From: an uncultured bacterium
GTDB lineage: Bacteria > Abyssobacteria > SURF-5
DNA length: 37,598 nucleotides
Assembly: GCA_964607485.1 (NCBI GenBank)
Contig: CAZSKP010000019.1
Coordinates: forward strand, 1 to 37,598
Direction of reading: 5' to 3'
Positions within the stretch are counted from its first letter, which is position 1. Every line of letters starts with the position of its first letter. A program made the position numbers and the translations under genes. This document shows positions 13,605 through 37,598 of the stretch, in pieces. Below the pieces are notes generated by a model, which was given only the letters and a program-made list of their open reading frames with translations, was not told where the DNA came from and made no database searches.

Positions 13605-13821
13605 CATGCTAAAGGCCAAAGCAACGTTTCTGTAGCAAACGGTTTCAGATTTATGCATAATTCAATAGCTGGGATACAACAAATATGAAGGGAAAAGGGA
13701 GAAATTCTCTTGGTCGTCGAGGAGAGAATGGCTCCAGTTTACACAAATTACACGCTTGATGTCGGATGAGGTCGGATTTGAAATATGGTCATCCGCATAA
13801 GCCGGAAGAAGGCGAAAGATC

Positions 13822-14460: not shown

Positions 14461-14490
14461 GGGAATCGCGACCACTTGCCATTCTCGCTA

Positions 14491-14553
14491 GAGAGGGGGA
14501 AACATCCGCTTTGAGGGAGAGAGCGGATGTTTTCCCCTCTCAACCTTTTTATT
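14491..14553 (+). terminator. Intrinsic terminator (20-bp stem)
   Basis: gagagggggaaacatccgct (14491-14510) pairs with agcggatgttttcccctctc (14522-14541) with one G-U pair. A T-rich tract follows. Confidence 0.75.
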
Positions 14554-14672
14554 CTCGGCTTCTCGAAAAATCAACCTTTTGCCAATCGACAGGTGTTGAC
14601 TTTTGCAGCCACTTCTGATACTGATTGTCGCATAAACAGACCGCGACTCATTCTTGTTAAGGGGGAACGCCG

Positions 14673-15638: not shown

Positions 15639-15714
15639 GTCGGGATTAGGGATGCTCAGGCACACTTGGGCCTTCAATTTGGACATCAATTAAGCTCTCT
15701 CGGGGGTTCATATC

Positions 15715-17184: not shown

Positions 17185-17219
17185 AGATTGGTTCGCCGAA
17201 GCAACGGGAGAGGATTTTC

Positions 17220-18704: not shown

Positions 18705-18747
18705 TCAGCGCACTACCGCTTACCCTAAGAATCAGGAGATGCAAATC

Positions 18748-22927: not shown

Positions 22928-25340
22928 TCTGAATTCGAGAAGCTCTCCCGTTGCGCTCAAGCTGGGGGCGCGTCATATTTCCCTTGCTTTGCCGTGGGGA
23001 AAATTGCTCGTGACAGCGGTGGCGGCCTGCGCAGTGCTCGCCGTTGCCGTCGCCCCAAGCGTCTTGTCGGCGCCGACCTATCTGCCCCGTTTCACCGTGG
23101 CCGTCAATGAAAATCCGCAAGACGTCGCTGTCACGCGGGACGGCGCTTACGCCTACGTCGCAAACTTCAATTCCGACAATCTCAGCATTATCGACCTTGG
23201 AAACTATGCGAAGGTGAAGGACATTCCCGCGGGCGACGGCCCGTCTTCGCTCGTCATCGCAAGCGACAATTCGTTCCTTGCGGTGGCCAATTTCTTTTCG
23301 AGCGACGTGTGGTTCATCAACCCGCAGACCGACACAGTCGAATCGCGAATCAAGGTCGGCGACGGTCCGATAGCCGTCGCCCTTTCCCCGGATGACAGCA
23401 CACTCTGTGTCGCCAACATGATGGGGCGGAGCATATCCGTAATCGACACAAAAGCGAGACAACTGACCGCCACGATCCCCCTCGATGATTACCCGTACGG
23501 AGTTGCTATCTCGCCCGACGGGAAACGCCTGTTTGTCTCGCTTCGTGAAAAAGCCGCGCTGGCTGTGATAGACCTTTCCACAAACGAGATTGTGGGAACG
23601 ATAGCAACGGGAGGATTCCCGCGTGCGATGGCCTTTTCGCCCGACGGCAGTCAGTTGTTTGTTACGGATTACGACGCAGGCAGGCTGCTGCTTATCGATA
23701 CGAAGAAGCTGGTAGTTGCGCGCGAATTCAAGGTCGGCGACGGTCCGATAGCGCTCGATGTGAACGCCGGCGGCTCGAAAGTGTTCGTGCTCAACAAGAA
23801 AAGCAACAGTCTGAGCGTCGCCGAAATTCCGACGCTTAACTTCTCCGAACTCATGGTCGGCACAAGCCCTACGCAGATAGTCCTGATTCCCAACACCGAG
23901 ATCGCCCTTGTGACGGCCAGCGGACTGAATCAGTTGCAGATCATGTTTCCCCAGGCGACCACCTCGCCACCCGCGAAGATCCCGGAGATGCTGAAACCCG
24001 CCCAGCCCGTTTCCGCGGCTATAGAGCCTCCCCCGCCGGTTGCGTCCGAGGAGGCGGCGCCCGTTATCGATGTGACGACCCCCCGGCCGACGCACGCTGG
24101 GGGCGTAAAGGAACCTATGGCCGTCGCACGCGCGGAGCAAGTGGCCACCCCTCGCCTAAGGCCCGCCGAGCCGGAGCCCTCCTCGGGACCGCCACCCGGC
24201 GATGCCGCCAAGGAGACCCCGTTGGCGGCCGCGACCAAAGAGCCTTCGGCCGAGACGGGACCAGTGCTGGAGCCCGGCAAGCCAATCGCCGGCAGTGCCG
24301 AGCCCGAAATTTCGGCCGACGCAATCGGCTCCGAGCCGCCGCGGAAGCCTGAGCGCATAGACCTCGCGCGTCTTCTCCCGCCGAGCGAGAGGAAAAGGAA
24401 GGTGGTGGGCGAGAAGGTCGGCAGCGCCAAGCTGGGGTCGGCGACTGCTCTCATTGTGAGCGAAGACACCCACGAGGTCTGCGTGTTGGATATGCACTCG
24501 AACAAGATTGTGTCGAGATTCAAGCTGAAGGACAGACCCGAAGGAGTTGCCGTCGACCCGAAGGGCAAATTCCTGTACATGACCATGCGATACGATAACT
24601 CGCTGCTTGTGATAGATCCAGCGGCCGGAAAGATCATCTCCAGTATTGCCGTGGGTGCTTATCCCCGTGCCGTGGCGGTTCACCCGGACGGCCACGTCGT
24701 CTATGTGACAAACGATGAAGATTCAACCATATCGGTCGTCGGTGTGCCGGAGTTCAAGGTGACCACGACAATCGGCGTCGGCGACAGCCCCATTGCGCTC
24801 GCTCTGTCGCCCGACGGAGACCGTCTGTACTGTCTCAACAGGTACTCGGGAACCGTCTCTGTAATCGACACGCGCGCTAACAAGGTGGTCTCGACGGTGG
24901 AGGTCGGCCGCTCGCCGTGTGCAGTTTCTTTGAGCCCCGACGGCTCTGCGATATATATCGCCGATGCCATAGACGATAAGATTTCCGTCATCGGAGCCGA
25001 CAACGAACGGGTTACCTCCTTGCAGGTCGGCGACCGCCCCGAGGCGCTTGCGTTGTCCCCCGATGGGAAATCTCTCTACTGCGTCAACTTCTTCTCCCGG
25101 ACCCTTTCGGTCATCGACACCCAGAACCTTTCCACCGTTAAGGATGTTCCGCTTGGGAACGGCCCGAGCGGAGTCGTGGTCAGTCCGGACGGTCGGTATG
25201 TGTATGTTACAAACCGCTTCGACAACAACGTCTCCGTGTTCAGCGCCGACAGCCTTACCATACTCGACACGATAGAGGTCGGGGGCGGCCCGACGAAGAT
25301 GACCGTCTATGCCGCTTCCGGCGGAACCACGCCGCGGTGA
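22917..25340 (+). CDS. Exported YVTN/YncE-family protein with two beta-propellers joined by a Pro/Ala/Glu-rich linker
   Basis: Signal-like hydrophobic segment and about 42-aa repeats (VG..P..vAlSPDG..lYV.N) in two blocks separated by a low-complexity linker. The start codon is uncertain (TTG 22917 or GTG 23010). Confidence 0.85.
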   Translation: MSNSLNSRSSPVALKLGARHISLALPWGKLLVTAVAACAVLAVAVAPSVLSAPTYLPRFTVAVNENPQDVAVTRDGAYAYVANFNSDNLSIIDLGNYAKVKDIPAGDGPSSLVIASDNSFLAVANFFSSDVWFINPQTDTVESRIKVGDGPIAVALSPDDSTLCVANMMGRSISVIDTKARQLTATIPLDDYPYGVAISPDGKRLFVSLREKAALAVIDLSTNEIVGTIATGGFPRAMAFSPDGSQLFVTDYDAGRLLLIDTKKLVVAREFKVGDGPIALDVNAGGSKVFVLNKKSNSLSVAEIPTLNFSELMVGTSPTQIVLIPNTEIALVTASGLNQLQIMFPQATTSPPAKIPEMLKPAQPVSAAIEPPPPVASEEAAPVIDVTTPRPTHAGGVKEPMAVARAEQVATPRLRPAEPEPSSGPPPGDAAKETPLAAATKEPSAETGPVLEPGKPIAGSAEPEISADAIGSEPPRKPERIDLARLLPPSERKRKVVGEKVGSAKLGSATALIVSEDTHEVCVLDMHSNKIVSRFKLKDRPEGVAVDPKGKFLYMTMRYDNSLLVIDPAAGKIISSIAVGAYPRAVAVHPDGHVVYVTNDEDSTISVVGVPEFKVTTTIGVGDSPIALALSPDGDRLYCLNRYSGTVSVIDTRANKVVSTVEVGRSPCAVSLSPDGSAIYIADAIDDKISVIGADNERVTSLQVGDRPEALALSPDGKSLYCVNFFSRTLSVIDTQNLSTVKDVPLGNGPSGVVVSPDGRYVYVTNRFDNNVSVFSADSLTILDTIEVGGGPTKMTVYAASGGTTPR

Positions 25341-25362: not shown

Positions 25363-27216
25363 ATGTATCGCTATAACATTCTCCCCGGCGTCGCGGCTCG
25401 ACGCTTCCTGCTGTGCTTGGCTCTGACGGCGCTCAGCTTGCTGCTTCCGGACAAAGCGGCGGCCTGGGGACAACGCACCCACGTCCGAATCACAGAGCTC
25501 GCCCTTGACGCGCTCCCCCCGGTGTATCGCGGCCAGGTTGTGCCTTACAAGGATGAGCTTCTCCGAGCCGTCATTGAAGAAGGGCGGAAAACAGCCCCGG
25601 GCGGCTATTCGACCATCGCATTGCAAACATTAGAAGACATTCAATTACTCATGCTTGTCCCCCACGACGGGACCGACCTGTCGCACTACTTCGTTTACCG
25701 GCTTGGCGCGACCGGCCGAGCAGTCGCCGATTCCGCGATGCCGCTCTCCTGGTCGAGCCCCTCGGACGAAGCGCTTCAAGAGAGATTTGAAAGCGACATC
25801 GACGGCGACTCGGAGTCGCTTCGAGCGCACAACGTATCTCCCATGTACCTCACTTATCCCGCCAGCTACATGGAGCGGGTATCGACCGACGCCCGGCTGT
25901 CCGAGAACTTGGTGAGAACCAGATACCTCTCCGGCGGGGGATACAGAAATTGCAGAGACGAGATAGTGCTGCCCGCCTTCAAGCGCGCCGTCGAAGCCGT
26001 CGCGAGCATATGGTTGACAATCCTCTCCAACGAGCCCGCGCCCAGAGCTATCCCGCCGCGAATCCGGATGGGCTACTACATGGACCAAATACAATACTCT
26101 TCAGCGAACGGCCACTTTGAAGACGTTTATGCCGCCCTTCAGGCGCTCAGGCAGGAGGGCAGGCGGATTCCGCTCACGCCGAATCTGGTGGGCGAAGAGT
26201 TCTTTAACCTTCCTTACAGCGCTCAGACGAGCCGCGTGTACGACCTCGCTACGCTCGTTGACCCGCAGTCGGCCGCCATCTCTGAACGGAAACGCTGTTG
26301 TGACGAATACGTCGAGAGGAACCGAGAGGAAAATGAAAATTCGTTCCCGACACGGAAGTTGCCCCGCTCCTTGTTCGGCAAGAATGGAGAGCCTCCCGAC
26401 ATTTTTGTCTATCAGCACAGCTCGGGCCTTCTGCTTCTCACAAGCAAAGTGAAGGAGACCGGTCCGGATTATGTGCTGCTGAACTTCGAGCCGATAAAGA
26501 AAATCACGAAGGAGAGGGTTGTCAGGACAATAAAGGGCGAACCTCAGACCGAAGAATTCGACCTAGAGGAAATCATACGGTTCTACGCGCGCGATTACGG
26601 CGTCTCGCCCGCGCTCGTCAAGGCGGTCATAAAGGTTGAATCCGATTTCCACCCTTACGTCGTGTCGAGCGCCGGAGCAAGGGGGCTGATGCAGCTAATG
26701 CCCTCTACAGCACTCGAAATGCAGGTCGAGGACACGTTCGACCCCATTCAGAACGTTGGAGGCGGAGTCCAGTACCTGGCCCGGATGCTCGAGCTCTTCA
26801 ACGGCGACGAACGGCTGGCGCTCGCGGCCTACAATGCGGGCCCCGGAAACGTGCTTCGATACGGCGGCATCCCGCCCTTCAAAGAGACGAGGGAGTACGT
26901 TCCGAAAGTGTTGGACTATTACGACCGATACAAGAAGGATTCCTCTCCGGTGAAGCTGAAGGTGGCTCTGAACAAGAAGCCGGCAGCGGATTATCTCCCC
27001 GATGTCGAAGTGGTCGAGGAGGTGGAGGTGGAAGTGACCGTATCCTCCCCCCGCCCGCCGAAACCGAAGGCCTCGAAGGACTATGTGATAGTCCGCCTGA
27101 AGAATGGAAACACGATGCGCGGAAAAGCATATAAGAAAACTCCCAAAGGTATAAAGCTGCAATTGGAAAACGGCTCGATTCTCATTCGCGAGGATTTGAT
27201 AACCGAGATAATTTGA
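25363..27216 (+). CDS. Exported lytic transglycosylase (SLT/GH23) with N-terminal Zn-PLC/S1-P1-nuclease-like helical domain
   Basis: Signal peptide ending AAA|WGQRTH. SLT motifs AVIKVES, GARGLMQLMP, ALAAYNAGPG and ETREYV. Small C-terminal beta domain (VRLKNG..RG). Confidence 0.85.
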   Translation: MYRYNILPGVAARRFLLCLALTALSLLLPDKAAAWGQRTHVRITELALDALPPVYRGQVVPYKDELLRAVIEEGRKTAPGGYSTIALQTLEDIQLLMLVPHDGTDLSHYFVYRLGATGRAVADSAMPLSWSSPSDEALQERFESDIDGDSESLRAHNVSPMYLTYPASYMERVSTDARLSENLVRTRYLSGGGYRNCRDEIVLPAFKRAVEAVASIWLTILSNEPAPRAIPPRIRMGYYMDQIQYSSANGHFEDVYAALQALRQEGRRIPLTPNLVGEEFFNLPYSAQTSRVYDLATLVDPQSAAISERKRCCDEYVERNREENENSFPTRKLPRSLFGKNGEPPDIFVYQHSSGLLLLTSKVKETGPDYVLLNFEPIKKITKERVVRTIKGEPQTEEFDLEEIIRFYARDYGVSPALVKAVIKVESDFHPYVVSSAGARGLMQLMPSTALEMQVEDTFDPIQNVGGGVQYLARMLELFNGDERLALAAYNAGPGNVLRYGGIPPFKETREYVPKVLDYYDRYKKDSSPVKLKVALNKKPAADYLPDVEVVEEVEVEVTVSSPRPPKPKASKDYVIVRLKNGNTMRGKAYKKTPKGIKLQLENGSILIREDLITEII

Positions 27217-27266
27217 TGTCGCACGGTTGCTGCGGCCTTAATCGACCCGGACTATCCCAACACTTC

Positions 27267-29558
27267 ATGACCTCTCTTCCAAAGTCATTTCAAACTCTTG
27301 TCGTCTCGCTGTTCGCCCTGGCTTCATTGACAATCCTTTTCGGGTGCGGCGCCGCTCAGAGACCCGTGACCATCAAACTGTGGGAATTCCCCCGCTGGCG
27401 CGAATCTCCCAATTCGGTTGACAGATTCGCGTGGATGCGGCGACAGATTGCGGATTTCGAGAGAACGCACCCACAGGTCTCCGTCGAGCTGACAGAACTC
27501 ACATGGGAGCGCGGCGAGGACAAGAAAAGGATCGCCATTGCTGCCGGCGTCGGCCCCGATATGATTACCGGCACGCTACCGGTGCAACTGGTTGAGCGGG
27601 GTCTGGTCGAGCCGGTCGATGCGTACATGACCGACGAGGAGAAGGCCGACTTCTTCCCACCGGCGCTGGACGCCTTCACGTACGAGGGCAAAACGTACGG
27701 TTGGCCCTGGTACCTCACGGGAAGCGCTATGTTCCTGAATCTCGAACTGTTCGAGCGATACGGAATACCCCCGCCGAGCGCGGACTGGAACTACAAAGAT
27801 TTTCTGGAGTGCGCACGGCGACTCACGCGCGACATTGATGGCGACGGAAGGCCGGAGGTGTACGGATTCGGATTCCTGGTCCGCCCTGGCGACACAAGCG
27901 TGTGGCCTTTCCTGTTTCCCGACGGCTTGCGGCTTCTACCCGGAGCCTCCGCGTCCCCCTTCGAGCCGAATGGAGGGGGCAAGGCCGGCTTCAGACTGCT
28001 CCACGAATTGATTCACAGAGAACGGGTCGCGCCGATACAGTGCGCCGCGTGGGACACCGAAGCGCTGTGGCAGCGCTTCACGAACCAGCGCGACATAGCG
28101 ATGGCGCCTTGGGGAATATGGGCAATCCCGAAGTTGCGCACCATCGCCGACTTCGATTTCGAGGTGCTCCCCTACCCCTCGCTGAGCGCTACCGCGCCCG
28201 CCGTGCCGGCGCGCGCGTTCATCGGAACCTCGGGGTTCGTCGTGCTGCGCCAAGCCGACGCGAGGAAGCGGGAGCTCTGCATGGAGTTTGCGAGATTCCT
28301 CGTGCGGCCGGAAGCGCAGGGAGAACTCGCCCTTTACGGCGTTTTCCCCTCGAAGATCTCGGCGGGCAACATCTATGAAGGCGACGAATTGATGGCGAGG
28401 ACACAGGAGATAATCACCGCGGGACAGACCGTTCCTCGACACGTCGAGTGGGCAAAGATAGACGAAAAGTTGCAGCGCGAATTTCAACTGGCGCTACTGG
28501 GTGAGAAATCGGTACAGGAAGCTTTGTCCCAAGGGGCTCGCCAGACGCGCATAATTCTGGAGAAATCAAAGGAGAGCACAGCCTCGGCACCGGCGGGCGG
28601 GCGGCCCGGCCGCATGCTCCCCATAGTCTCAGCGCTTTTCGCTCTGGGCGGGGCATTTACTATCTGCATCATGTTTCTCGCGCACAGGGGCCGCGCGGTT
28701 TCGGCGTCGCCGTTCGCGTTTCTGTGTCCGGCGCTCACGGTCTTCGGAGTCTTCCTGCTTTTCCCGCTCTGCTGGGTTGTGCTCCTGTCTTTTCAGGAAT
28801 ATTCCATCGCAAATGCTCACTCCACATGGACGGGCCTGCAGAACCTGCGCTCGGCCGTCCGCGACCCCGTGTTCACCAAGGCCGCCCTGAACACGCTTAT
28901 CTACTCCGCGGTTGTCGTGCCCGTGAACACGCTGTCAGCCCTCGTCGTCGCCAGCCTCATATATCCGCTTTCGAGCCGGGCCAGGTCGTTCTTCCGTGGC
29001 GCCTACTACCTTCCGGGCGTGGCGTCGGTGGTGGTGATCGCGATGGTCTGGCGGTGGATGTTCAACGAGAACTTCGGACTGCTCAACGCCGCGCTGGGGT
29101 TCTTGGGGCTGCCGGGGGTTCGATGGCTGACGAATCCGCATGTGGCGCTGTCGAGCGTCATCCTGACGGGCATCGCGCGCCCGCCCGGAGGCCCGATACT
29201 CATATACCTGGCCGCGCTCGACGCAATCCCGACGTCTCTGTACGACGCGGGCGAAATCGACGGGGCCGGGCCTCTCAGGAGATGGTGGCACGTGACGGTG
29301 CCGCTGCTGAGGCCGACCACGTTGTTTCTTGCGCTCACGATAACGATCGCCTCGTTTCAAGTGTTCACGCAGGTGTTCATCCTGACAGACGGCGGGCCGG
29401 GCTATGCCACCGAGGTGGTCGTGCACAGGATATATACGGCGGCCATTCGCGATTTCGATTTCGGAGCGGCCGCTGCGATGTCGCTCATATTATTTGGCGT
29501 CATCCTGTTCGTCTCGGCATTGCAGTATCGGTTCTTCAGGTCGGAGGTCGAGTACTAG
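27267..29558 (+). CDS. Carbohydrate ABC transporter: substrate-binding lipoprotein fused to a MalF-type permease
   Basis: Lipobox LFGC and a sugar-SBP region (GPDMI, YEGKTYGWP, DIDGDG). Same frame continues into TM helices with YYLPGV, GLLNAAL, WLT, LYDAGEIDGA (EAA-like) and LTDGGPG. Alternative start at 27213/27216. Confidence 0.9.
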   Translation: MTSLPKSFQTLVVSLFALASLTILFGCGAAQRPVTIKLWEFPRWRESPNSVDRFAWMRRQIADFERTHPQVSVELTELTWERGEDKKRIAIAAGVGPDMITGTLPVQLVERGLVEPVDAYMTDEEKADFFPPALDAFTYEGKTYGWPWYLTGSAMFLNLELFERYGIPPPSADWNYKDFLECARRLTRDIDGDGRPEVYGFGFLVRPGDTSVWPFLFPDGLRLLPGASASPFEPNGGGKAGFRLLHELIHRERVAPIQCAAWDTEALWQRFTNQRDIAMAPWGIWAIPKLRTIADFDFEVLPYPSLSATAPAVPARAFIGTSGFVVLRQADARKRELCMEFARFLVRPEAQGELALYGVFPSKISAGNIYEGDELMARTQEIITAGQTVPRHVEWAKIDEKLQREFQLALLGEKSVQEALSQGARQTRIILEKSKESTASAPAGGRPGRMLPIVSALFALGGAFTICIMFLAHRGRAVSASPFAFLCPALTVFGVFLLFPLCWVVLLSFQEYSIANAHSTWTGLQNLRSAVRDPVFTKAALNTLIYSAVVVPVNTLSALVVASLIYPLSSRARSFFRGAYYLPGVASVVVIAMVWRWMFNENFGLLNAALGFLGLPGVRWLTNPHVALSSVILTGIARPPGGPILIYLAALDAIPTSLYDAGEIDGAGPLRRWWHVTVPLLRPTTLFLALTITIASFQVFTQVFILTDGGPGYATEVVVHRIYTAAIRDFDFGAAAAMSLILFGVILFVSALQYRFFRSEVEY

Positions 29559-29591
29559 CGCTTGAGTGGGCGCGGTTAACGAAACTAGGAC

Positions 29592-30413
29592 ATGGCATCC
29601 CGCAAATCACATACGACACTGATAGCGCTGTTGACGCTTGGGGCGGCCGTGTCTGTTTTCCCCGCATTCTGGATGTTCTACACCTCGTTCTGTCCGGCGG
29701 AGAAGCTCAGCGCCGTGCCTCCGGTTTTCGTCCACGGCGAGTTCACGTTGCTGAACTATTCGCAGCTCCTGTTGAACGCCCCCATCGCGCGATGGACCGT
29801 CAACTCTTTTGTCATATGCGCGGCGATAACCCTCGGCCAGCTTCTGTTTGACAGCATGGCCGGATATGCGTTCGCCAGAAAGAAGTTCTTCGGCCGAGAG
29901 ATTCTCTTCTGGTTGGTCGTCGGCACGATGATGGTCCCCGTGCAGATACTCATCGTGCCGTTGTATATAATGATGGTGAGACTGCACCTGGTGGACACGC
30001 TGTGGGCGGCGATATTGCCCGGACTGGCCGGTCCGTTCGGAATCTTCTTCATGAGACAATACATGCTGACGATTCCGACCGAACTGGAGGAAGCGGCAAG
30101 AATCGACGGGTGCAGCGAGTTCCAGATATTCTTCCGGGTGATTCTCCCCGTCTGCGCGCCGGCGTTAGGAGTGCTGGCAATATTCCTGTTCATCTCGAAC
30201 TGGAATTCGTTCCTATGGCCGCTGCTCGTGCTCAACAGCGCCGACACCTACACGCTCACGGTTGGACTCGCAACGCTGCAGGACAAGCAGGCGCTCGATT
30301 ACGGGCTGCTGATGGCCGGAGCCGTCGTCGCGTCTCTCCCGATGTTCGGCGTGTTCCTGCTGTTCCAACGCATGTTTATCAGGGGCGTCAGAATGGGCGC
30401 TCTGAAAGGATGA
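29592..30413 (+). CDS. Carbohydrate ABC transporter permease (MalG type)
   Basis: AGYAFAR, IPTELEEAARIDGC (EAA loop) and WNSFLWPL motifs. Confidence 0.95.
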   Translation: MASRKSHTTLIALLTLGAAVSVFPAFWMFYTSFCPAEKLSAVPPVFVHGEFTLLNYSQLLLNAPIARWTVNSFVICAAITLGQLLFDSMAGYAFARKKFFGREILFWLVVGTMMVPVQILIVPLYIMMVRLHLVDTLWAAILPGLAGPFGIFFMRQYMLTIPTELEEAARIDGCSEFQIFFRVILPVCAPALGVLAIFLFISNWNSFLWPLLVLNSADTYTLTVGLATLQDKQALDYGLLMAGAVVASLPMFGVFLLFQRMFIRGVRMGALKG

Positions 30414-32239
30414 CCGAAACAAGGAGTGGTTTCACATTGATTTTCAATAACCTGTTCAGAATAAGGCTCGTCACGTCGACGGTGTCGGCGGCCTGCATTA
30501 TCTTCTGCGCGACCTCGTGCGCAAACCGTTCGAATCACGCGGAAGTGGCCGAACATACAGCCGAAGTCATCGGCTCCGCGGACGCGCTGTACTCTGCCGA
30601 AGGCTCAGGCGCGGGCAGTGAGGACACGCTTGCGTCCACGCAGGCATCGGATTCCCAAGAACCGGAAGAAGAGGTCAGCATTCCGGTTGTCGAGCCGAAG
30701 AAGATCGAGCCGCGGAAGGCATACATCGAGCCCATCGTGAGGGTGCAGATTCTCGGAGACGCATCCTCTATCAAGCTCGGAAGCAAGGGGAAATTGACGC
30801 TGAGCTTCGGCAGCAACTTCATGAAGGTCGAGCCGGGCTCGCGTCTCCGGTTCAAGCCGCGCAGCGCCCGCGTGTCCGTGCGTTCATACGCGGTCGGAAT
30901 CGGCACCTTCGGCGCCGACGAATATGAAGACGCGATGAAGCTGGCGGAGAAATGGAAAAAGGACGGCTACACCGTCCGACTGATAAAGGCGGGCGGCCCG
31001 CTCCTCCAGGCCGACGGCACGATAGCCGATACCACTGTTTACTGGGTTGCGCTCGGCATCTTCAAAGAACAGCAAGCCGCCGAAAAATTCCGGGACAGGA
31101 TGTTTGACCGTGGCATCTCATGCTGGGTGATCGACGAGAGCGTGCTTGGCCCCCGGGGGAACATAGAGTTGGCCGACGCAAAGGGCAATCCGCTCGCGTA
31201 TGCCGACTCACGCGTAATCGTCGCAAGCGGTGAACCCATAACCATCTTCGATGTCCCGTTCGGACACGGGTTCTGGGATTCGGGCAATAGAGAAGACAGA
31301 AGCTACCTCAGTCCGCTCGAGATCATCGTGGACAAGAAGGGGAAGCTGGCGGCGATAAACGAGGTCAAGCTTGAAGAATATGTGAAGGGCATCGTACCTG
31401 TCGAAATACGGTTGACCGCACACGACGAGGCCCTGAAGGCCCAAGCGGTTTCGGCCCGCACAGAAGCGATAGCGAAGCTGGGCATCCAGCACGCATTCGA
31501 CCCGTACGACTTCTGCGCCTCGCAGCACTGCCAGGAGTTTGGCGGACTCGCCCGCAGGACTTCTCGGACGGATGCGGCCGTGGACGCCACCCGTGGGCAG
31601 GTGCTTATGTGCGACGGGTGTCTCGTGGATGCGGTGTACAGCGCCAACTGCGGTGGCCACACCGAGAACAATGAGAATGTCTGGACCTCCCGGCCGAATA
31701 TATCGCTCCGGGGCGTCTCCGACCTTTACAGCAACCCGGACTCGTTCCACTTCCCGCTCTCGGGGTCTCAACTGAGCAAGTGGCTCCAGCAATCGCCACG
31801 CGCTTATTGCGGAGACCCGCGCGTCGGCGACCGCAGCAAATTCCGCTGGAAGGTGAGATACAGCCCGACGCAGATAAAAAGAATCGTGAACAGGTATCGC
31901 AGAGTGGGTTCGGTCAGGGACATCATTGTTCTTCGGAGAGGAGTGTCGGGCCGCGCCCTGCGCATCAGGATCGTCGGCAGCAGCGATACCGCGACAGTCA
32001 ACAAGGAGCTGCAGATAAGACGCGTGCTGGGCGGGCTCAAGAGTTCGATGTTCACCGTGGACATCAATCGCAACTCCTCCGGCAATCCGACGTCGTTCGT
32101 TTTCTACGGAGGCGGATGGGGCCATGGAGTCGGGCTGTGTCAGGCGGGGGCCGAGGGAATGGCCCTCGCGGGATTCGACTATTCCGACATCCTCAAGCAC
32201 TACTTCTCGCGGACCGAAATCAAACAATTGTATGAATGA
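30410..32239 (+). CDS. SpoIID/LytB-family lytic transglycosylase with SPOR domain, probable lipoprotein
   Basis: ATGA overlap with the permease stop, ATSC lipobox-like motif and SPOR-like repeats (YAVGIGTF.., YWVALGIF..AAEK). SpoIID motifs EEYVKGIVPVE, ALKAQAVSART, DFCASQHCQ and GWGHGVGLCQ. Confidence 0.9.
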   Translation: MTETRSGFTLIFNNLFRIRLVTSTVSAACIIFCATSCANRSNHAEVAEHTAEVIGSADALYSAEGSGAGSEDTLASTQASDSQEPEEEVSIPVVEPKKIEPRKAYIEPIVRVQILGDASSIKLGSKGKLTLSFGSNFMKVEPGSRLRFKPRSARVSVRSYAVGIGTFGADEYEDAMKLAEKWKKDGYTVRLIKAGGPLLQADGTIADTTVYWVALGIFKEQQAAEKFRDRMFDRGISCWVIDESVLGPRGNIELADAKGNPLAYADSRVIVASGEPITIFDVPFGHGFWDSGNREDRSYLSPLEIIVDKKGKLAAINEVKLEEYVKGIVPVEIRLTAHDEALKAQAVSARTEAIAKLGIQHAFDPYDFCASQHCQEFGGLARRTSRTDAAVDATRGQVLMCDGCLVDAVYSANCGGHTENNENVWTSRPNISLRGVSDLYSNPDSFHFPLSGSQLSKWLQQSPRAYCGDPRVGDRSKFRWKVRYSPTQIKRIVNRYRRVGSVRDIIVLRRGVSGRALRIRIVGSSDTATVNKELQIRRVLGGLKSSMFTVDINRNSSGNPTSFVFYGGGWGHGVGLCQAGAEGMALAGFDYSDILKHYFSRTEIKQLYE

Positions 32240-33386
32240 CTCATCTCAAACGGTCAGGCCGGGCATCACCCAGTTGTTGGAATCCGAGCGAGGCATTCTC
32301 GACGGCGCCCGGGTCGGCCTGATCGCAAACTCGGCAAGCGTCAACGAACGGGGAATCTCCACGGCATCGCTGCTTCTCAATGTCGGCATCCACCTCGAAT
32401 GCCTGTTTGCGCCCGAACACGGATACGACGCCTCGGCCGAGGCCGGACGTAAGGTCACCGACTCCTTTGACGCGAACACGGGACTCCCCATTCGCAGCCT
32501 GTACAACGAAGCGCGCCAGCCGACCGCCGAGATGCTGCGAGACATTGATGCCGTCGTGTTTGACCTGCAGGACGTGGGAGTTCGGTGTTACACCTATATT
32601 TGGACGATGGCGCTGGCAATGCAGTCGGCGGCCCTCTACGGCAAGCTGTTCGTGGCACTCGACCGCCCCAATCCGCTCGGCGGCCTCCTTGTACAAGGGC
32701 CAGTCCTCGACCCTCGGTTTGCAACCTTCATGGGAATGTATCCTATCCCCCTTCGATACGGAATGACGATAGGCGAGCTTGCGCTGCTGTTCAACCATTC
32801 CTTCGAGATAGGCGCCGACCTGGCTGTGATCCGGATGCAGGGCTGGCGACGCCGGCTCTGGTTCGCCGACACGGGCTTGAAGTGGCTGCCTCCCTCGCTG
32901 GCGATTCGTTCGGCCGAATGCGCTCTCCCGTATGCGGGCACGTGCCTGTTCGAGGGCACCAATATGTCGGAAGGACGCGGAACCTCCTCCCCATTCCGCT
33001 TGATAGGAGCACCGTGGCTCGACACCCATATCCTCGGCGCGGTGGATGAAAGGTGGCTCGCCGGGTTCGATGTATCGCCCCAAAAATTCACGCCGAGCGG
33101 GTCTGAGTATGCAGGGACCGAATGCGCCGGGCTTGCTATCACGGTCGTTGACAAGGAGAGGGCCGACCCCGTTGCGCTATCGGTTGCGCTGCTCGCGGAG
33201 ATAGCCTCGCGTCATCGGGCTGACCTCGAGTGGAACGAGGAGCACTTCGATGCGGTCGCGGGCACGGATACGCTTCGTCGCGAAATCTGCGCGGGAACCG
33301 ACCCCGAAAATATTATTGAAAGCTGGAAGGAGTCTCATCGGAATTTCGAAAAACTCAGGACGCAGCATCTTATGTACGAAGGGTGA
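32232..33386 (+). CDS. namZ: Exo-beta-N-acetylmuramidase NamZ (DUF1343/YbbC, GH171)
   Basis: RVGLIAN, LFAPEHG, FDLQDVGVRCYTY, LDRPNP, GMTIGELA and SEGRGT motifs. It overlaps the upstream stop and has no signal peptide from ATG 32232. Confidence 0.92.
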   Translation: MNDSSQTVRPGITQLLESERGILDGARVGLIANSASVNERGISTASLLLNVGIHLECLFAPEHGYDASAEAGRKVTDSFDANTGLPIRSLYNEARQPTAEMLRDIDAVVFDLQDVGVRCYTYIWTMALAMQSAALYGKLFVALDRPNPLGGLLVQGPVLDPRFATFMGMYPIPLRYGMTIGELALLFNHSFEIGADLAVIRMQGWRRRLWFADTGLKWLPPSLAIRSAECALPYAGTCLFEGTNMSEGRGTSSPFRLIGAPWLDTHILGAVDERWLAGFDVSPQKFTPSGSEYAGTECAGLAITVVDKERADPVALSVALLAEIASRHRADLEWNEEHFDAVAGTDTLRREICAGTDPENIIESWKESHRNFEKLRTQHLMYEG

Positions 33387-33422
33387 CAGGTTACGGGAAA
33401 GCTCGGTGACAGAGTTGGCGAG

Positions 33423-34946
33423 ATGTTCATGGTCGGCTACGCGGGCGTCGACCCCATGGCCGCGAGCGACCTCATCCGGCGCTATCGCGTCGGAGGAATA
33501 ATACTCTTTTCGAGAAATGTAAGGGATGCGGCCCACGCGGCGGAAGTGTGCGAGAAGCTGCAGGAGCTCAGGCGGCAGGTGAGCGACTCGCCGCTGTTCA
33601 TTGCGGTGGACCAGGAGGGTGGCTGCGTCGCGCGAATAACCGAGGGGGTCACGGTCTTCCCGGGCAACATGGCGCTGGGGGCGACCGGGTCCGAGCATCT
33701 CGCACGGCGCGTAGGCAACGTGACGGCAACCGAGCTTTCGGCTCTGGGGATAAACGTCAACTTCGCGCCCGTTCTCGACATCAGCTCTAATCCTCGCAAT
33801 CCGGGCGTCGGTGCTCGGTCGTTCGGCTCAGACCCTGCGCTCGTTGGGCGTCTGGGATCGGCGATGATAGGAGGAATGCAGGAGAAGGGCGTCTGCGCGA
33901 CCGCGAAGCATTTCCCCGGGCTGGGCAACGCGCGAGTCGATTCCCACGACGAGCTGCCTGTCGTGGATGCCGCAAGAGACCGGCTGGAGAACCGAGAGCT
34001 TCTGCCCTTCCGCGCGGCCATCGAGGCCGATGTCGCATTCATCATGACGGCCCATTGCTCCTTTCCATCGCTCGACGGCACGCTCGCCCCGGCAACGCTT
34101 TCAAAGCCTGTCCTCACGGGGCTGCTCCGGGAACGAATGGGATTCAACGGAATCGTGATAACCGACTGCCTCGAAATGGCGGCGGTCGAAAAAGACTTCC
34201 CGGCGGCGCAGTCGGCCCTGATGGCGGTCCGCGCGGGCGCTGATATGGCGTTGATCTGTCACACGCCCGAGAAGCAGGCTTCCGCGGTCGACTCGCTCGC
34301 CGCCGCCGTCGAGTCCGGAGATATTCCGGAAGAGACTATCGACGTAGCCACTACAAAAATATCATCCATCAAAAAACATCTTGGATTTTGCGACAGCTCC
34401 GCGCCCCGCAAGGTTGCGCCTGAAGCGTCGCTCAGCGAATCCATTGCCGCCGAAGCCATAACCATCGTGAGAAACGAGGGCTCGATGGTGCCGCTGAGAC
34501 TCGCGCCGTCGGACAAGCTTGGCGTGGTCGTTCCCCGCTTCGAGATCCTCACAAAAGTGGAAGATGCCGCCGAACCGCACGAGGCTTTCCTGGAAGAAGT
34601 GAGACGCCGCCATCCGCATGTGCTCTATCGCAAGGTCGCCGTCGAGCCATCGTCTAAAGAGATCGGCGAGTGTGTGACTATCTGCAGGGAAGCGGACTCT
34701 CTGATTGTGCTCACGTATAACCTTCATCTGAATCCAGCGCAGAGAGATTTCGTGCGCTCCGTTCTTGCCCTCGGCAAGCCAACAATCGTGGCGGCCGTGC
34801 GCGACCCATATGACCTCGTGTTCGTACCGGGCGCGCGCGCTTGTGTGGCAACGTACAGCTTCCGGGAGTGCTCGTTAAGAGCTTTGGCTAAGGTTCTCTT
34901 CGGCGATTTCGAGGCGAGAGGCAAGCTGCCGGTCGAACTTGCCTAA
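33423..34946 (+). CDS. nagZ: Beta-N-acetylhexosaminidase NagZ (GH3, two-domain type)
   Basis: GGIILFSRN, AVDQEGG, NFAPVLD, RSFG, KHFPG, DSH dyad, MTAH and ITDCLEM nucleophile, plus a C-terminal domain (VRDPYD, GKLPV). The true start is unclear (see findings). Confidence 0.93.
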   Translation: MFMVGYAGVDPMAASDLIRRYRVGGIILFSRNVRDAAHAAEVCEKLQELRRQVSDSPLFIAVDQEGGCVARITEGVTVFPGNMALGATGSEHLARRVGNVTATELSALGINVNFAPVLDISSNPRNPGVGARSFGSDPALVGRLGSAMIGGMQEKGVCATAKHFPGLGNARVDSHDELPVVDAARDRLENRELLPFRAAIEADVAFIMTAHCSFPSLDGTLAPATLSKPVLTGLLRERMGFNGIVITDCLEMAAVEKDFPAAQSALMAVRAGADMALICHTPEKQASAVDSLAAAVESGDIPEETIDVATTKISSIKKHLGFCDSSAPRKVAPEASLSESIAAEAITIVRNEGSMVPLRLAPSDKLGVVVPRFEILTKVEDAAEPHEAFLEEVRRRHPHVLYRKVAVEPSSKEIGECVTICREADSLIVLTYNLHLNPAQRDFVRSVLALGKPTIVAAVRDPYDLVFVPGARACVATYSFRECSLRALAKVLFGDFEARGKLPVELA

Positions 34947-34957
34947 TCAAAGGAAAC

Positions 34958-36118
34958 ATGAAGCGTCTTGTCGAAATTGCAGGGCTGAGGAAGCGGCTCG
35001 TCGTCGGGCTGATGTCCGGCACCTCGGCCGACGGCGTCGATGCCGCACTGGTCGAAATTGAGGGAAATTCCCTCGACACCCGTGTGAAGCTCCTTGCGTT
35101 CGAGACGCTTCCCTACCCCAGAGATATCGCGGAAGCAGTCAGAAATCTTCAGGGCGGCACGACGCGGCAGGTGTGCGAGATGAACTTCCGGCTGGGCGAG
35201 ATATTCGCGCAGGCCGCTCTGAACGTGATTCGCTCGTCCGGCGCCGAGCCGTCGGACGTTCACCTGATCGGCTCACACGGGCAGACCATCTATCATATGC
35301 CGGACGCTGCGCCGCCCGCACGCTCGACGCTCCAAGTGGGCGAGCCGTGCGTCATAGCGGAGCGCACGGGCATTCCGACCGTGGCCGACTTCCGCGTTCG
35401 CGACGTGGCGGCGGGCGGCTACGGCGCTCCTCTCATCCCCTATGTCGATTTTCTTCTCTTCAGGGAACCGGGCCGCGTGAGGGCTCTGCAGAACATCGGC
35501 GGAATCGCCAACGTGACGATTGTCACTCCCTCACTCGATGGCGTGTTCGGCTTCGACACCGGCCCCGGCAATGCGCTGATAGATGAGTTCGTCCGTGGAA
35601 CGACCGCAGGCGAGCACGCGTTTGACAAGGGCGGAAATCTCGCGCGAGGCGGAGAGGTCGAAGAGGAAATCCTCCAGAATCTCCTTGAGCACCCCTATTT
35701 CAGCTTGCCTCCTCCTAAGACGACCGGCCGCGAGGTCTTCGGTCCCGAACTGGTGCGAAAGCTCATCTCCGCGACTCCGCCCGAGCACCGCGCTGACATG
35801 CTGGCGACCCTCACCGCGCTGACGGCGCGCTCGATCAAGATGAGCTACGACCGGTTCGTGTTCCCGGAGGCCGTTGTCGATGAGGTAATCCTGAGCGGGG
35901 GTGGTTGCCGGAACGATTATCTGGTAGAATTACTTCGCGAGTTGTTTGCACCGGTTCCCGTTCGGCTATCCGATGAATTCGGCGTGCCGGCGGACGCGAA
36001 GGAGGCGATAGGCTTCGCCGTCCTCGCAAACGAGACGATAAGCGGAAACCCGTCGAATGTTCCCTCCGCCACCGGGGCCTCGCACCCTGTGGTGCTGGGA
36101 AAGATCGTGCCGCCCTAA
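34958..36118 (+). CDS. anmK: Anhydro-N-acetylmuramic acid kinase
   Basis: GLMSGTSADGVD, IGSHGQT, DFRVRDVAAGGYGAPL, NIGGIAN, FDTGPGN, PPKTTGRE and KEA motifs. Confidence 0.96.
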   Translation: MKRLVEIAGLRKRLVVGLMSGTSADGVDAALVEIEGNSLDTRVKLLAFETLPYPRDIAEAVRNLQGGTTRQVCEMNFRLGEIFAQAALNVIRSSGAEPSDVHLIGSHGQTIYHMPDAAPPARSTLQVGEPCVIAERTGIPTVADFRVRDVAAGGYGAPLIPYVDFLLFREPGRVRALQNIGGIANVTIVTPSLDGVFGFDTGPGNALIDEFVRGTTAGEHAFDKGGNLARGGEVEEEILQNLLEHPYFSLPPPKTTGREVFGPELVRKLISATPPEHRADMLATLTALTARSIKMSYDRFVFPEAVVDEVILSGGGCRNDYLVELLRELFAPVPVRLSDEFGVPADAKEAIGFAVLANETISGNPSNVPSATGASHPVVLGKIVPP

Positions 36119-36152: not shown

Positions 36153-37310
36153 ATGTTGAAATCTATTCTTCGGATCGGCTGCGCCGGGCTAGTGTTGCTT
36201 GCGGGGGTGTTGTCGCCGGGATCTCAGAACAATGTTTATTCCGAGACCGCTAATAATCATCCGGCTAAATCTGTCTTCATAGATTTTTCTCTCAGTCCCT
36301 TACGTGATAGGCTGGCCGCCGTGCTTAGTAATAAAGACGGATTCAGCGGTATCAAGGTCGTGGATGTTACAAGTGGAACAGTTTTGGAAATGTTTGAGGC
36401 TCCGGATGTAAGTGATCCTGTGTGGTCTTCTGACGGCAAGCAGCTGTTCTTTCGAGCAATAACAAAAGAGCTAGATTGCGGGCAGGAATTGCCCCCAGAG
36501 GCTTTCAGTAAGCTTGCTCGAGAAGCTACTTTGGTCTACAAATATGACTTTGACAAATTCACACCTGTCGTTGAAGGATTGATTGTGCACGACCTTATGT
36601 ATTCGAAATTCCTTCAATCCCCGATTATCATCGGAATGGAAGAGTTATTTGAGCCGGGGGCTGATTGGGATGATTGGAAAGCGAGGCGTAGACCGGATCT
36701 CTGGATGATCGATTTAGGCGACCAACAGCTGCGACGATTGACCTCGGAAAACTCACTTTCAGGCAGCCCGGTCATGTCAACAGATGGCACGCTCGTTTTC
36801 TATAATCTTCTTCTTCCCCGCGAAGAGAAATGTGTCCAATTCGTGCTGGACCTGCGCACAATGGGAAAAAAACCGCTGGATTTGGGGCGTTTTTTTGATT
36901 CGTTCCTGGCCTTGTCAAAAGATAACAGGTATCTGCTGTTCACCAAGAATCCTATCGTCGAGGGCGAGGTGCAACCCAAAGGTCGTTGTTATCTGTATGA
37001 CCTTGAGAAAGGTCAGGAGACTCAGTTATTGGGCGAAGAGTTTATCGTTTGCGAAGGAGCCTTTCTTGAAAACGGAAAGACGGTGGCGCTGTTGGCAAAA
37101 GGCCCGGGAGAAGAGGAATTCAATATTTGGATAGTCAGAAATAGGCTTGGCCCCCCGGAGAAGATCACTGACACTGGTCCGCCGTCTGGCGGAAAGGGCA
37201 AGATGGCGCGGTATGATGAGACAAATCTCATATTCACCAATAATAAGAACATATATGTGGTAAATGTGGTAAGTGGTGAGAAGCGTGTGGTATATACGGT
37301 ATCCAAGTAG
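36153..37310 (+). CDS. Exported TolB-like beta-propeller protein
   Basis: Signal peptide and repeats resembling P-x-WS-x-DG (PVWSSDG, PVMSTDG, LSKDNRYL). Visibly AT-richer than the operon upstream. Confidence 0.75.
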   Translation: MLKSILRIGCAGLVLLAGVLSPGSQNNVYSETANNHPAKSVFIDFSLSPLRDRLAAVLSNKDGFSGIKVVDVTSGTVLEMFEAPDVSDPVWSSDGKQLFFRAITKELDCGQELPPEAFSKLAREATLVYKYDFDKFTPVVEGLIVHDLMYSKFLQSPIIIGMEELFEPGADWDDWKARRRPDLWMIDLGDQQLRRLTSENSLSGSPVMSTDGTLVFYNLLLPREEKCVQFVLDLRTMGKKPLDLGRFFDSFLALSKDNRYLLFTKNPIVEGEVQPKGRCYLYDLEKGQETQLLGEEFIVCEGAFLENGKTVALLAKGPGEEEFNIWIVRNRLGPPEKITDTGPPSGGKGKMARYDETNLIFTNNKNIYVVNVVSGEKRVVYTVSK

Positions 37311-37423: not shown

Positions 37424-37598
37424 ATGATACGCATACTTTTTCGACCGAGCTTTCCGGTAAGGTTCTTCTTTGTCATCGTCTTTTTGGTGTTCGGGTGCAT
37501 GTGTCTTGCTTCGTGCGCGCGTGCGCCGCGCGTGACGCCGCAAAAGGCTCTGGACTACGGCCAGTTCGCTCTGCGCCAACTGCCGCCCGAGGCAGATC
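37424..37598 (+). CDS. Probable lipoprotein, 3' truncated (not in the supplied ORF track)
   Basis: GAGG RBS, then MIRILFRPSFPVRFFFVIVFLVFGCMCLASCARAPRVTPQ..., with a lipobox LASC. The frame is open to the window end. Confidence 0.65.
   Translation, partial: MIRILFRPSFPVRFFFVIVFLVFGCMCLASCARAPRVTPQKALDYGQFALRQLPPEAD

Follow-up and report, generated by a model that had tools for sequence, protein, structure and literature searches.

A candidate carbohydrate-type ABC importer linked to genes for peptide-free peptidoglycan glycan in an uncultured Abyssobacteria genome

How bacteria recycle peptidoglycan affects their growth economy, the induction of beta-lactamase and immune signalling, and peptidoglycan fragments are known to enter cells through AmpG, phosphotransferase system (PTS) transporters, MurT and peptide-type ATP-binding cassette (ABC) systems. 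In the Escherichia coli AmpG-NagZ-AmpD-AnmK-MurQ pathway, lytic transglycosylase products ending in anhydro-N-acetylmuramic acid (anhMurNAc) are imported and then handled by cytoplasmic NagZ and AnmK. YejBEF-YepA of Agrobacterium tumefaciens is said to be a peptide/oligopeptide-type system that takes up muropeptides. It provides a precedent for an ABC importer replacing AmpG in AmpG-less bacteria (PMC9790009, in excerpt). In the Bacillus subtilis murQ-murR-murP-amiE-nagZ-namZ operon, an amidase, NagZ and NamZ work stepwise from the non-reducing end and an uptake system is encoded alongside them (PMC8054146, in excerpt), while Tannerella forsythia, with MurT/AmpG and NamZ1-3, combines GH171 enzymes acting on peptide-free glycan with import of the fragments for salvage of N-acetylmuramic acid (MurNAc) (bioRxiv 10.1101/2021.12.02.470905, in excerpt). 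Here we analysed a gene cluster that resembles each of these systems in part. It lies in a 37,598-nucleotide stretch of DNA from an uncultured Abyssobacteria bacterium (hereafter the window), which corresponds to bases 1-37,598 of an 82,660-base contig in an assembly of 4.70 Mb (93 contigs, 97.5% complete). The cluster is built around a solute-binding protein fused to a permease, and we put the probability at roughly two in three that it is a conserved envelope operon in which periplasmic breakdown of peptide-free glycan is coupled to uptake and cytoplasmic dismantling. The transporter is probably a new class of peptidoglycan-glycan importer.

Genes were called from an open reading frame (ORF) listing together with Pfam and NCBIfam profile searches. 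The central gene is a single ORF of 781 amino acids, in which SBP_bac_8/SBP_bac_1 (residues 66-381; PF13416 91.1 bits, PF01547 80.3 bits) is followed by BPD_transp_1. In NCBIfam, the fused permease matched GlcT/UgpA/MalF best, and the second permease, which is encoded by the next gene, matched UgpE/GlcU/MalG best. Among named public entries, the nearest relatives of the transporter gene come from metagenome-assembled genomes (MAGs) labelled by their depositors as Candidatus Abyssobacteria, Hydrogenedentota, Poribacteria or Lindowbacteria; NCBI taxonomy treats Abyssobacteria as a class within Candidatus Hydrogenedentota. Thirty-one of 39 database matches were themselves of fusion length (707-782 amino acids), with identities of 42-100%. 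An alignment of 13 members showed the same layout throughout, namely a lipobox, the binding domain, an extra helix, a short Arg-rich loop and the permease core, and the fusion was invariant. This layout would place the binding domain outside the cell and the N-terminus of the permease inside, as a MalF-type core needs.

To place the binding domain structurally, we compared an AlphaFold model built from a 36-sequence alignment (pLDDT 89.8, pTM 0.88) with solved structures using Foldseek. All of the top 50 neighbours were CUT1 binding proteins, among them binders of maltotriose, cycloalternan, sophoropentaose and arabino-oligosaccharides (tri- to penta-saccharides), at 17-22% identity. Sequence and predicted fold therefore both fit a place among the CUT1 oligosaccharide binders, a comparison that fixes the class of the protein and leaves its ligand unnamed.

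The evidence that carries the proposed function comes from the genes that travel with this fusion. Scanning a single genome from each species gave 80 loci. These were searched by tblastn, using as queries the proteins of the window and four proteins of a distant locus, and we kept the 52 loci whose binding and permease parts form one uninterrupted frame. The 28 loci set aside mostly had similarity to the permease only; a few had interrupted or unfused genes and one was cut at a contig end. By identity in the binding domain, eight of the kept loci were close relatives (55% or more) and 44 were distant (28-47%). Only loci with at least 5 kb of sequence downstream of the fusion were eligible for counting, which left six close and 31 distant loci and excluded two and 13, respectively, as too short. 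The second permease was found at all six close and 28 of the 31 distant eligible loci, and SpoIID at 6/6 and 24/31. Beyond these two genes the neighbourhoods diverged: NamZ, NagZ and Amidase_3 genes were each present at 6/6 close and 0/31 distant loci, AnmK at 6/6 and 1/31, and SLT at 5/6 (in synteny) and 0/31, while a BadF/BcrAD-type sugar kinase (0/6 and 25/31), MurQ (0/6 and 20/31) and Amidase_2 (0/6 and 9/31) were confined to the distant loci. Taken together, one or more genes of the set MurQ, SpoIID, AnmK and cell-wall amidase accompanied the fusion at 6/6 close and 25/31 distant eligible loci, the six distant loci with none of them being L032, L042, L048, L052, L070 and L071.

The SIS proteins of the distant loci were identified as MurQ, with TIGR00274 scores of 359-381 bits in the examples checked (cut-off 302). 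MurQ, typically a single-copy gene, occurred at most once per genome among the 41 genomes searched; in a genome of 5 Mb it would lie no more than 10 kb from a given gene by chance in under 1% of cases. Because relatives are not independent, we clustered the fusion proteins at 60% identity and obtained five clusters. The largest is Riflebacteria-like (39 loci, with kinase, MurQ and SpoIID), and its members share about 30-35% identity with the window's protein in the binding domain. The window's own cluster holds nine loci, with SpoIID, NamZ, NagZ, AnmK and amidase. Locus L021 forms a cluster by itself and represents a third lineage, in which a 613-amino-acid fusion of a BadF-type kinase to a full MurQ (L021:12998-14839) comes directly after the transporter genes and is itself followed by SpoIID and AnmK. 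MurNAc-related genes were thus linked to the transporter in three of five clusters, in differing gene orders and with SpoIID as the common neighbour. The initial annotation had proposed that conservation of this neighbourhood be checked across genomes, and the outcome favours it: the fused transporter is a conserved family that adjoins MurNAc-specific genes in three of five clusters.

We also came across unfused relatives. One locus encodes an unfused homologue of the binding domain (L127:9869-12560; 440 amino acids, about 32% identity) that has no adjoining permease and lies directly upstream of murB. CUT1 systems that are unfused and more distant occur at two Bacillota MAG loci (L061 and L062), where a GntR/UTRA regulator, a BadF-type kinase and an SIS_2 protein accompany them; these clusters also encode a ceramidase-like protein, a GHL10/DUF4015 hydrolase and a GH3 enzyme, and are uncharacterised and amino-sugar-like in appearance.

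The second line of evidence concerns where the enzymes would act. Export signals were called from the Kyte-Doolittle maximum of a 12-residue window over the first 60-70 residues, combined with a lipobox pattern, which is a hydrophobicity heuristic. By this measure SLT (2.60), the fusion (2.37, lipobox LFGC) and SpoIID (2.08, lipobox ATSC) have hydrophobic N-termini, as do the PD40 protein, the amidase and the double propeller described below. NagZ (0.96) and AnmK (1.09) do not, and the N-terminus of NagZ cannot be longer since its ORF begins at the first start codon past the preceding stop. For NamZ, the first 60 residues encoded by the longest ORF (start 32124) gave 0.29, and a start at the annotated ATG, where the sliding window reaches into the mature domain, gave 1.68. 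The same pattern held in syntenic relatives: even with the longest possible ORFs, NamZ (7/7), NagZ (7/7) and AnmK (6/6) were signal-less (maximum 1.63), and SpoIID had a hydrophobic stretch ending in Cys in 7/7. The hydrophobicity scores therefore bear out the initial division into two exported transglycosylases and three signal-less enzymes.

NamZ, NagZ and AnmK are each single-copy in the window's genome and were assigned from profile matches. NagZ and AnmK exceed curated equivalog cut-offs (NF003740 and NF007148), and NagZ carries at 33906-33947 the motif KHFPGLGNARVDSH, which we take to be the NagZ signature with its Asp-His dyad. NamZ has both domains that define the GH171 exo-muramidase, for which the catalytic residues in the B. 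subtilis enzyme are Glu92 and Arg279. All characterised members of the family are secreted or periplasmic, and it is in predicted location, not in fold, that the window's protein differs from them. NamZ enzymes act on peptide-free glycan (PMC8054146 and bioRxiv 10.1101/2021.12.02.470905, both in excerpt); the B. subtilis enzyme has a signal peptide and acts outside the cytoplasm (PMC8054146, in excerpt), and the three T. forsythia enzymes have signal peptides and are extracytoplasmic (bioRxiv 10.1101/2021.12.02.470905, in excerpt). As every NamZ studied so far, according to these partial texts, carries a signal peptide, a cytoplasmic NamZ would be a departure from what is known.

We then asked which other routes of fragment uptake the bacterium might have, using ten genomes of the window's taxonomic family (the window's own and nine relatives; 77-98% complete). 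The fused transporter was present in one copy in each of the ten. AmpG was over its cut-off in 0/10 and PTS EIIC was found in 0/10, so there is no MurP or NagE. An AmpD-type Amidase_2 occurred in one of the ten, not in the window's genome, and Mpl was over its cut-off in 0/10, its matches being MurC-like; the set that defines E. coli-type muropeptide recycling (AmpG, AmpD, Mpl and MurQ) is accordingly not that of this family. The missing AmpD and Mpl would fit uptake of peptide-free sugar only. Among five distant carrier genomes, AmpG was likewise over its cut-off in 0/5 (one has a 203-bit AmpG-like gene), and AnmK (5/5), NamZ (5/5) and NagZ (over cut-off in 4/5) were encoded outside the transporter cluster. 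Three Riflebacteria genomes (G041, G043 and G044) each encode two NamZ paralogues, of which one is signal-less and the other carries a signal (L097/L100/L102 versus L098/L101/L103), which suggests that exo-muramidase steps may take place both outside and inside the cell; the only NagZ examined there, that of L099 in G041, was signal-less.

The same genome searches located a possible energy source for the importer. Both permeases have loops matching what we take to be the EAA motif (Table 1), and an ABC ATPase must therefore serve them. The window's genome has only two CUT1 systems, and the other, on contig C15, comes with its own binding protein, permeases and MalK/UgpC-type ATPase. In a profile scan that covered a hand-picked 46 of 82 listed ORFs, we found an orphan MalK/UgpC-type ATPase on contig C4 (NF008653 439 bits, cut-off 432) that has no transporter neighbours and is the best candidate to energise the importer. 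The ATPase that the initial annotation had placed outside the window thus has candidates on C4 and C15. Of the genes it had suggested looking for genome-wide, this orphan ATPase was found; ampG, murQ and an AmgK/MurU pair were not.

The fate of the recovered MurNAc is where the predicted pathway breaks off. MurQ, assumed at the outset to be encoded elsewhere, proved absent from the window's genome and all nine relatives (0/10), and tblastn detected no homologue of MurQ or of the BadF-type kinase in the window's genome. Nor was an AmgK/MurU pair found in that genome, its APH-family matches being a Kdo kinase and Ser/Thr protein kinases. The best MurU match in 10/10 family genomes was an RmlA-like gene with 78 bits against a cut-off of 250; since the model is strict and passes 0/14 control genomes, a divergent MurU may have escaped it. 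The presence of AnmK without MurQ breaks the pathway at MurNAc-6-phosphate and points to an enzyme not yet known. The RmlA-like gene itself (C14:28213-28938; L088:3214-3939, - strand) encodes a 241-amino-acid sugar-1-phosphate nucleotidylyltransferase and is kept in all ten genomes; a gene for a 187-amino-acid SPOR-domain protein (L088:3986-4549, - strand) adjoins it.

Assembled into a pathway, these predictions would run as follows. A lipoprotein amidase with two Amidase_3 domains would strip the stem peptides, and the SPOR-SpoIID lipoprotein, probably helped by SLT, would cut the denuded strands into the disaccharide of N-acetylglucosamine (GlcNAc) and anhMurNAc and into longer, anhMurNAc-ended pieces. 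A type-I ABC importer of the CUT1 kind, with its lipid-anchored binding protein fused through the extra helix to the MalF-like permease, would carry these fragments across the inner membrane, powered by a MalK/UgpC-type ATPase encoded elsewhere, for which the orphan C4 gene may be the source. In the cytoplasm NagZ would take off the terminal GlcNAc and NamZ the MurNAc then exposed, and AnmK would turn the final anhMurNAc into MurNAc-6-phosphate. What the analysis establishes is the identity and order of the genes, their predicted topology, the conserved fusion with its link to MurNAc genes in distant lineages, and the lack of AmpG, PTS, AmpD, Mpl and MurQ; the cargo and which way it moves, the partner ATPase, what each enzyme acts on and the onward course of MurNAc-6-phosphate are predictions.

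The case for an oligomeric cargo, rather than a disaccharide or monomer, depends mainly on a cytoplasmic location of NamZ. There, the enzyme would need a substrate whose non-reducing end is MurNAc, and hence import of at least a tri- or tetrasaccharide; such an end is exposed only once NagZ has trimmed a fragment of tetrasaccharide length or more. The proposal made at the start, AmpG-independent import of denuded oligomers by a CUT1 transporter, is thus favoured by the neighbourhood linkage, the finding of AmpG over its cut-off in 0/10 family and 0/5 distant genomes and the signal-less NamZ and NagZ, while the oligomer size is a matter we infer. A bolder version holds that the fusion founds an importer family replacing AmpG in at least two deep lineages (Abyssobacteria-like and Riflebacteria-like), that its cargo is peptide-free oligomers of at least tetrasaccharide size, that a GH171 NamZ is cytoplasmic here for the first time, and that the Abyssobacteria-like members, for want of MurQ, AmgK and MurU, dispose of MurNAc-6-phosphate through an undiscovered enzyme. 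We advance this whole set of claims tentatively and consider it somewhat doubtful.

Several observations weigh against the proposed coupling of glycan breakdown to uptake. The substrate is read from neighbouring genes, and two of the five clusters (the Wallbacteria-like cluster of three loci, two of them eligible, which includes L058, and L042, a cluster of its own; three eligible loci in all) show no cell-wall gene in the stretch of sequence available, and neither do the Riflebacteria-like loci L032, L048 and L052. Relatives are not independent, so that effectively three lineages carry the linkage; a further 30 metagenome loci repeat the two main patterns and overlap the genome loci (e.g., L118 and L018), and were not counted separately. 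The binding domain resembles solved proteins in a generic way, at 17-22% identity and with maltodextrin binders first. No ATPase gene was found in the transporter cluster in any lineage, which makes the partner a candidate only, and the pathway is incomplete, with MurQ absent and no AmgK/MurU pair under a strict MurU model. The signal calls are hydrophobicity heuristics that leave room for Tat or non-classical export, the genome has further Amidase_3 genes besides that of the cluster, and the Riflebacteria-like clade could import monomers because it has an exported NamZ paralogue.

Among the alternatives, the one that survives best keeps the same molecular mechanism and changes its purpose: the operon would mainly feed the cell on foreign peptidoglycan, scavenged from necromass or prey. 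The NamZ systems characterised so far all salvage wall material that has been released or is foreign (PMC8054146 and bioRxiv 10.1101/2021.12.02.470905, both in excerpt), the cluster encodes large exported proteins to which no role is assigned (the double propeller, and SLT with its novel N-terminal domain), and other Amidase_3 genes in the genome could attend to cell separation. Yet the cluster has no component for uptake across the outer membrane, SPOR domains target the cell's own septal denuded glycan (PMC6895207, in excerpt), and catabolic use would need the MurQ that the window's family lacks; a transporter that is universal and single-copy in the family also looks like a housekeeping function. 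We regard scavenging as the chief role as unlikely, if the most serious of the competing explanations.

Recovery of the cell's own glycan as oligomers has also to be weighed against a smaller cargo, with import of MurNAc or anhMurNAc monomers only, or of the GlcNAc-anhMurNAc disaccharide only. SpoIID has been reported to release disaccharides (PMC6221140, in excerpt), and in the distant clade a sugar kinase and MurQ, which would be enough for free MurNAc, adjoin the transporter, while the exported NamZ paralogue in genomes of that clade could make monomers outside the cell. In the window's genome, however, NamZ and NagZ are single-copy and signal-less, and so these enzymes would produce no monomers outside; a signal-less NamZ, which if cytoplasmic would call for import of a tri- or tetrasaccharide, is found in distant carriers too, and tri- to penta-saccharides are the ligands of the proteins nearest in structure to the binding domain. 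A cargo this small therefore seems improbable to us. That the transporter carries an unrelated carbohydrate, such as chito-oligosaccharides, and has cell-wall neighbours of no functional meaning is very improbable: the ligands of the closest solved relatives of its binding domain are indeed maltodextrins and other non-amino sugars, cell-wall genes are missing from the surroundings of several family members and NagZ-type GH3 enzymes cleave chitobiose too, but the MurNAc-specific MurQ, AnmK, NamZ and SpoIID flank the transporter in three lineages with differing gene orders, the proximity of MurQ at 20/31 eligible loci contrasts with the chance expectation of below 1% per locus, and no chitinase or chitin-related gene occurs in any cluster examined.

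The features of the operon and its surroundings are collected in Table 1.

Table 1. Positions of the operon genes, their domains and the flanking genes in the window, with the evidence for each assignment.
Feature	Position	Strand	Evidence
Double YVTN/lactonase-type beta-propeller protein, 807 amino acids, predicted exported, Pro/Ala-rich linker	22917..25340	+	Pfam, NCBIfam, hydrophobic N-terminus
SLT, predicted exported lytic transglycosylase	25363..27216	+	PF01464 101.5 bits, signal
Fused solute-binding lipoprotein::MalF/UgpA-type permease, 763 amino acids	27267..29558; alternative TTG 27213	+	Single ORF
Lipobox signal of fusion	27267-27347	+	Lipobox pattern
Binding domain of fusion	about 27348-28601	+	Pfam
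Extra transmembrane helix of fusion	28623-28679	+	Transmembrane scan
Permease core of fusion	about 28704-29555	+	Pfam
Putative EAA-type coupling loop, fused permease	29244-29303	+	Motif
MalG/UgpE-type second permease	29592..30413	+	BPD_transp_1 75 bits, UgpE 135 bits
Putative EAA-type coupling loop, second permease	30090-30149	+	Motif
SPOR-SpoIID/LytB lipoprotein, 609 amino acids	30410..32239	+	TIGR02669 188.7 bits (cut-off 83.3)
SPOR domain	about 30884-31132	+	PF05036 23.7 bits (cut-off 21)
SpoIID domain	about 31352-32224	+	TIGR02669
Glu codon aligned to catalytic E101 of Clostridioides difficile SpoIID	31403-31405	+	Alignment to PDB 5txu/5i1t
NamZ, GH171 exo-beta-N-acetylmuramidase family, signal-less	32232..33386	+	PF07075 (NamZ_N) 252.7 bits, PF20732 (NamZ_C) 151.1 bits
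NagZ, two-domain GH3 beta-N-acetylglucosaminidase, signal-less	33423..34946	+	NF003740 223.4 bits (cut-off 207), PF00933 317 bits
AnmK, the kinase for anhydro-N-acetylmuramic acid, predicted cytoplasmic	34958..36118	+	NF007148 481.7 bits (cut-off 387), PF03702 352.6 bits
PD40/TolB-like beta-propeller protein, predicted exported	36153..37310	+	PD40 23.7 bits, signal
Amidase gene, 5' end, 58 codons, lipoprotein-type signal	37424..37598, onward to contig position 39854	+	Translation

The ORF listing, Pfam, NCBIfam and the spacing of the genes (50, 33, -4, -8, 36 and 11 nt from SLT to AnmK) agree with the list, order and coordinates of the seven co-oriented, abutting or overlapping genes first described here. 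The unit extends further on the downstream side than was then thought. The window ends inside an amidase gene, at a 10-N scaffold gap (contig 37599-37608; L001:599-608) that interrupts the gene, for which reason a few codons of its first Amidase_3 domain are missing. Its product has two Amidase_3 domains and a CarboxypepD_reg domain (Pfam, NCBIfam), and a convergent acyl-CoA-ligase-type gene comes after it. An amidase gene follows AnmK in 6/6 close loci; the statement that the window holds none and that the amidase must lie elsewhere was mistaken, as this gene begins within the window and closes the operon. The intervening PD40 gene was not matched by tblastn at any of the 80 genome loci, and in six syntenic relatives it is absent and AnmK directly abuts the amidase gene, from which we take it to be a local, lineage-specific insert outside the conserved unit. 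On the upstream side, the double propeller lies directly before SLT in all five close loci that have upstream sequence (L008, L010, L012, L014 and L015), and likewise in the metagenome locus L105, making it a possible upstream member of the conserved unit. A scan for promoter- and terminator-like sites gave nothing above chance that bears on the limits of the operon: of 11 promoter-like sites (5.9 +/- 2.4 expected), none lay upstream of the operon, and terminator-like sites numbered 15, with 16.2 expected.

We looked more closely at the wall-cutting enzymes. The SpoIID gene is single-copy in the window's genome, and alignment to PDB 5txu/5i1t places its E332 opposite E101 and a Cys, a His and a Cys opposite the zinc ligands C140, H145 and C146; the ligand H134 is not conserved, so that three of four zinc ligands are kept. 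The roles of E101, C140, H145 and C146 were established in the C. difficile enzyme (PMC6221140, in excerpt). The SPOR match is marginal and consistent in position, being over the cut-off in five of seven close-clade proteins and below it in two; it was over the cut-off in none of five distant SpoIID-family proteins tested. The activities first attributed to the two domains agree with what the partial texts of the literature report: SPOR domains bind denuded glycan, the septal denuded glycan of the cell itself being their target (PMC6895207), and SpoIID cuts only amidase-denuded glycan, to give anhydroMurNAc-ended pieces that are chiefly GlcNAc-anhMurNAc (PMC6221140). In one Gram-negative bacterium, too, a SpoIID homologue works at the division septum (PMC6635528, in excerpt).

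The SLT protein consists of a signal peptide, a 385-amino-acid N-terminal domain (window 25465-26622) and the SLT domain near its C-terminus. The N-terminal domain had no Pfam match at E<=5. Its predicted mature N-terminus is Trp-Gly with a His four residues on, and this is invariant in six orthologues; a zinc phospholipase C/P1-nuclease-like fold was considered for the domain and dropped, with no Pfam match and a poor AlphaFold model from six sequences (pLDDT 55.7). We likewise rejected the idea that the cluster amidase is the sole cell-separation amidase of the genome: tblastn returned no paralogue, but a Pfam search found Amidase_3 on contigs C1 and C17/C6. Elsewhere in the window, the region 11955-20037, upstream of leuS, holds several genes unrelated to the operon. 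Their products are a fusion of an ODP metallo-beta-lactamase to an adenylate/guanylate cyclase, a second protein of metallo-beta-lactamase fold, an amidohydrolase, a methyltransferase of the MttB family and a Cys/Met pyridoxal-phosphate enzyme.

In the full-text literature we searched, which lay mostly outside subscription journals and excluded supplements, we found no carbohydrate-type ABC importer for peptidoglycan sugars. None is mentioned in the available part of a 2024 review of muropeptide transporters (PMC11509177), and nothing in the available parts of PMC6987092 and PMC5507952 pre-empts one. If the proposal is correct, a carbohydrate-type ABC importer for peptide-free glycan would be an added entry route; it would explain how wall sugars are recovered in phyla that lack both AmpG and PTS, and would answer what becomes of septal denuded glycan in such bacteria. 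The GH171 enzymes would gain a cytoplasmic role, and the missing MurQ step would be a defined biochemical gap pointing to an enzyme for MurNAc-6-phosphate outside the known set. All parts of the operon are soluble or standard membrane proteins, and hence can be expressed and assayed.

Compared with the E. coli pathway, the system described here would use a binding-protein-dependent ABC importer instead of AmpG, which belongs to the major facilitator superfamily; the peptides are apparently removed before import (there is no AmpD in the genome and no Mpl), a predicted cytoplasmic NamZ is added and MurQ is missing. It differs from YejBEF-YepA in being of the carbohydrate type (SBP_bac_1/8 with MalF/MalG-like permeases) and in lying amid genes for enzymes of peptide-free glycan. 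B. subtilis secretes AmiE, NagZ and NamZ, and monomeric MurNAc enters through the PTS transporter MurP and passes to MurQ (PMC8054146, in excerpt), whereas here NagZ and NamZ are signal-less, PTS EIIC and MurQ are lacking and the importer is of the ABC class. In T. forsythia the three NamZ enzymes have signal peptides and are periplasmic, and import proceeds via MurT and AmpG (bioRxiv 10.1101/2021.12.02.470905, in excerpt). The wall-cutting half of the operon is closest to the SpoIID-SpoIIP engulfment machinery (PMC6221140, in excerpt) and the chlamydial SpoIID homologue (PMC6635528, in excerpt), in which an amidase denudes the glycan and a SpoIID-family enzyme cuts it to anhydro ends. The window's SpoIID keeps the catalytic Glu and most zinc ligands. 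Unlike that machinery, it comes as a fusion with a SPOR domain and a lipoprotein anchor, belongs to a lineage that does not sporulate and is genetically tied to an importer and to predicted cytoplasmic glycosidases.

For the transporter, the nearest structural parallel is the MalE-MalF fusion of Bdellovibrio bacteriovorus (PDB 6ffl), also a CUT1 system with a binding domain fused to a MalF-type permease, whose MalE domain is the top Foldseek neighbour of our binding-domain model (E 2.3e-27, TM-score 0.64-0.69). It differs in its sequence, at 21% identity, and in its ligand, which is maltotriose. We know of no cell-wall gene context for this fusion, and of no linkage to NamZ, AnmK, MurQ or SpoIID for UspABC, the remaining point of comparison. 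UspABC/UspC of Mycobacterium tuberculosis (PDB 5k2x/5k2y) is likewise of CUT1 type and has been proposed to recover cell-wall amino sugars (PMC13041923, in excerpt), but UspC is distant (sequence E 2e-4; structural rank 17-20) and is not fused. The logic of the pathway and its protein families are thus known ones, and what appears to be new in this operon is the class of the carrier, the location of NamZ and the missing step after AnmK.

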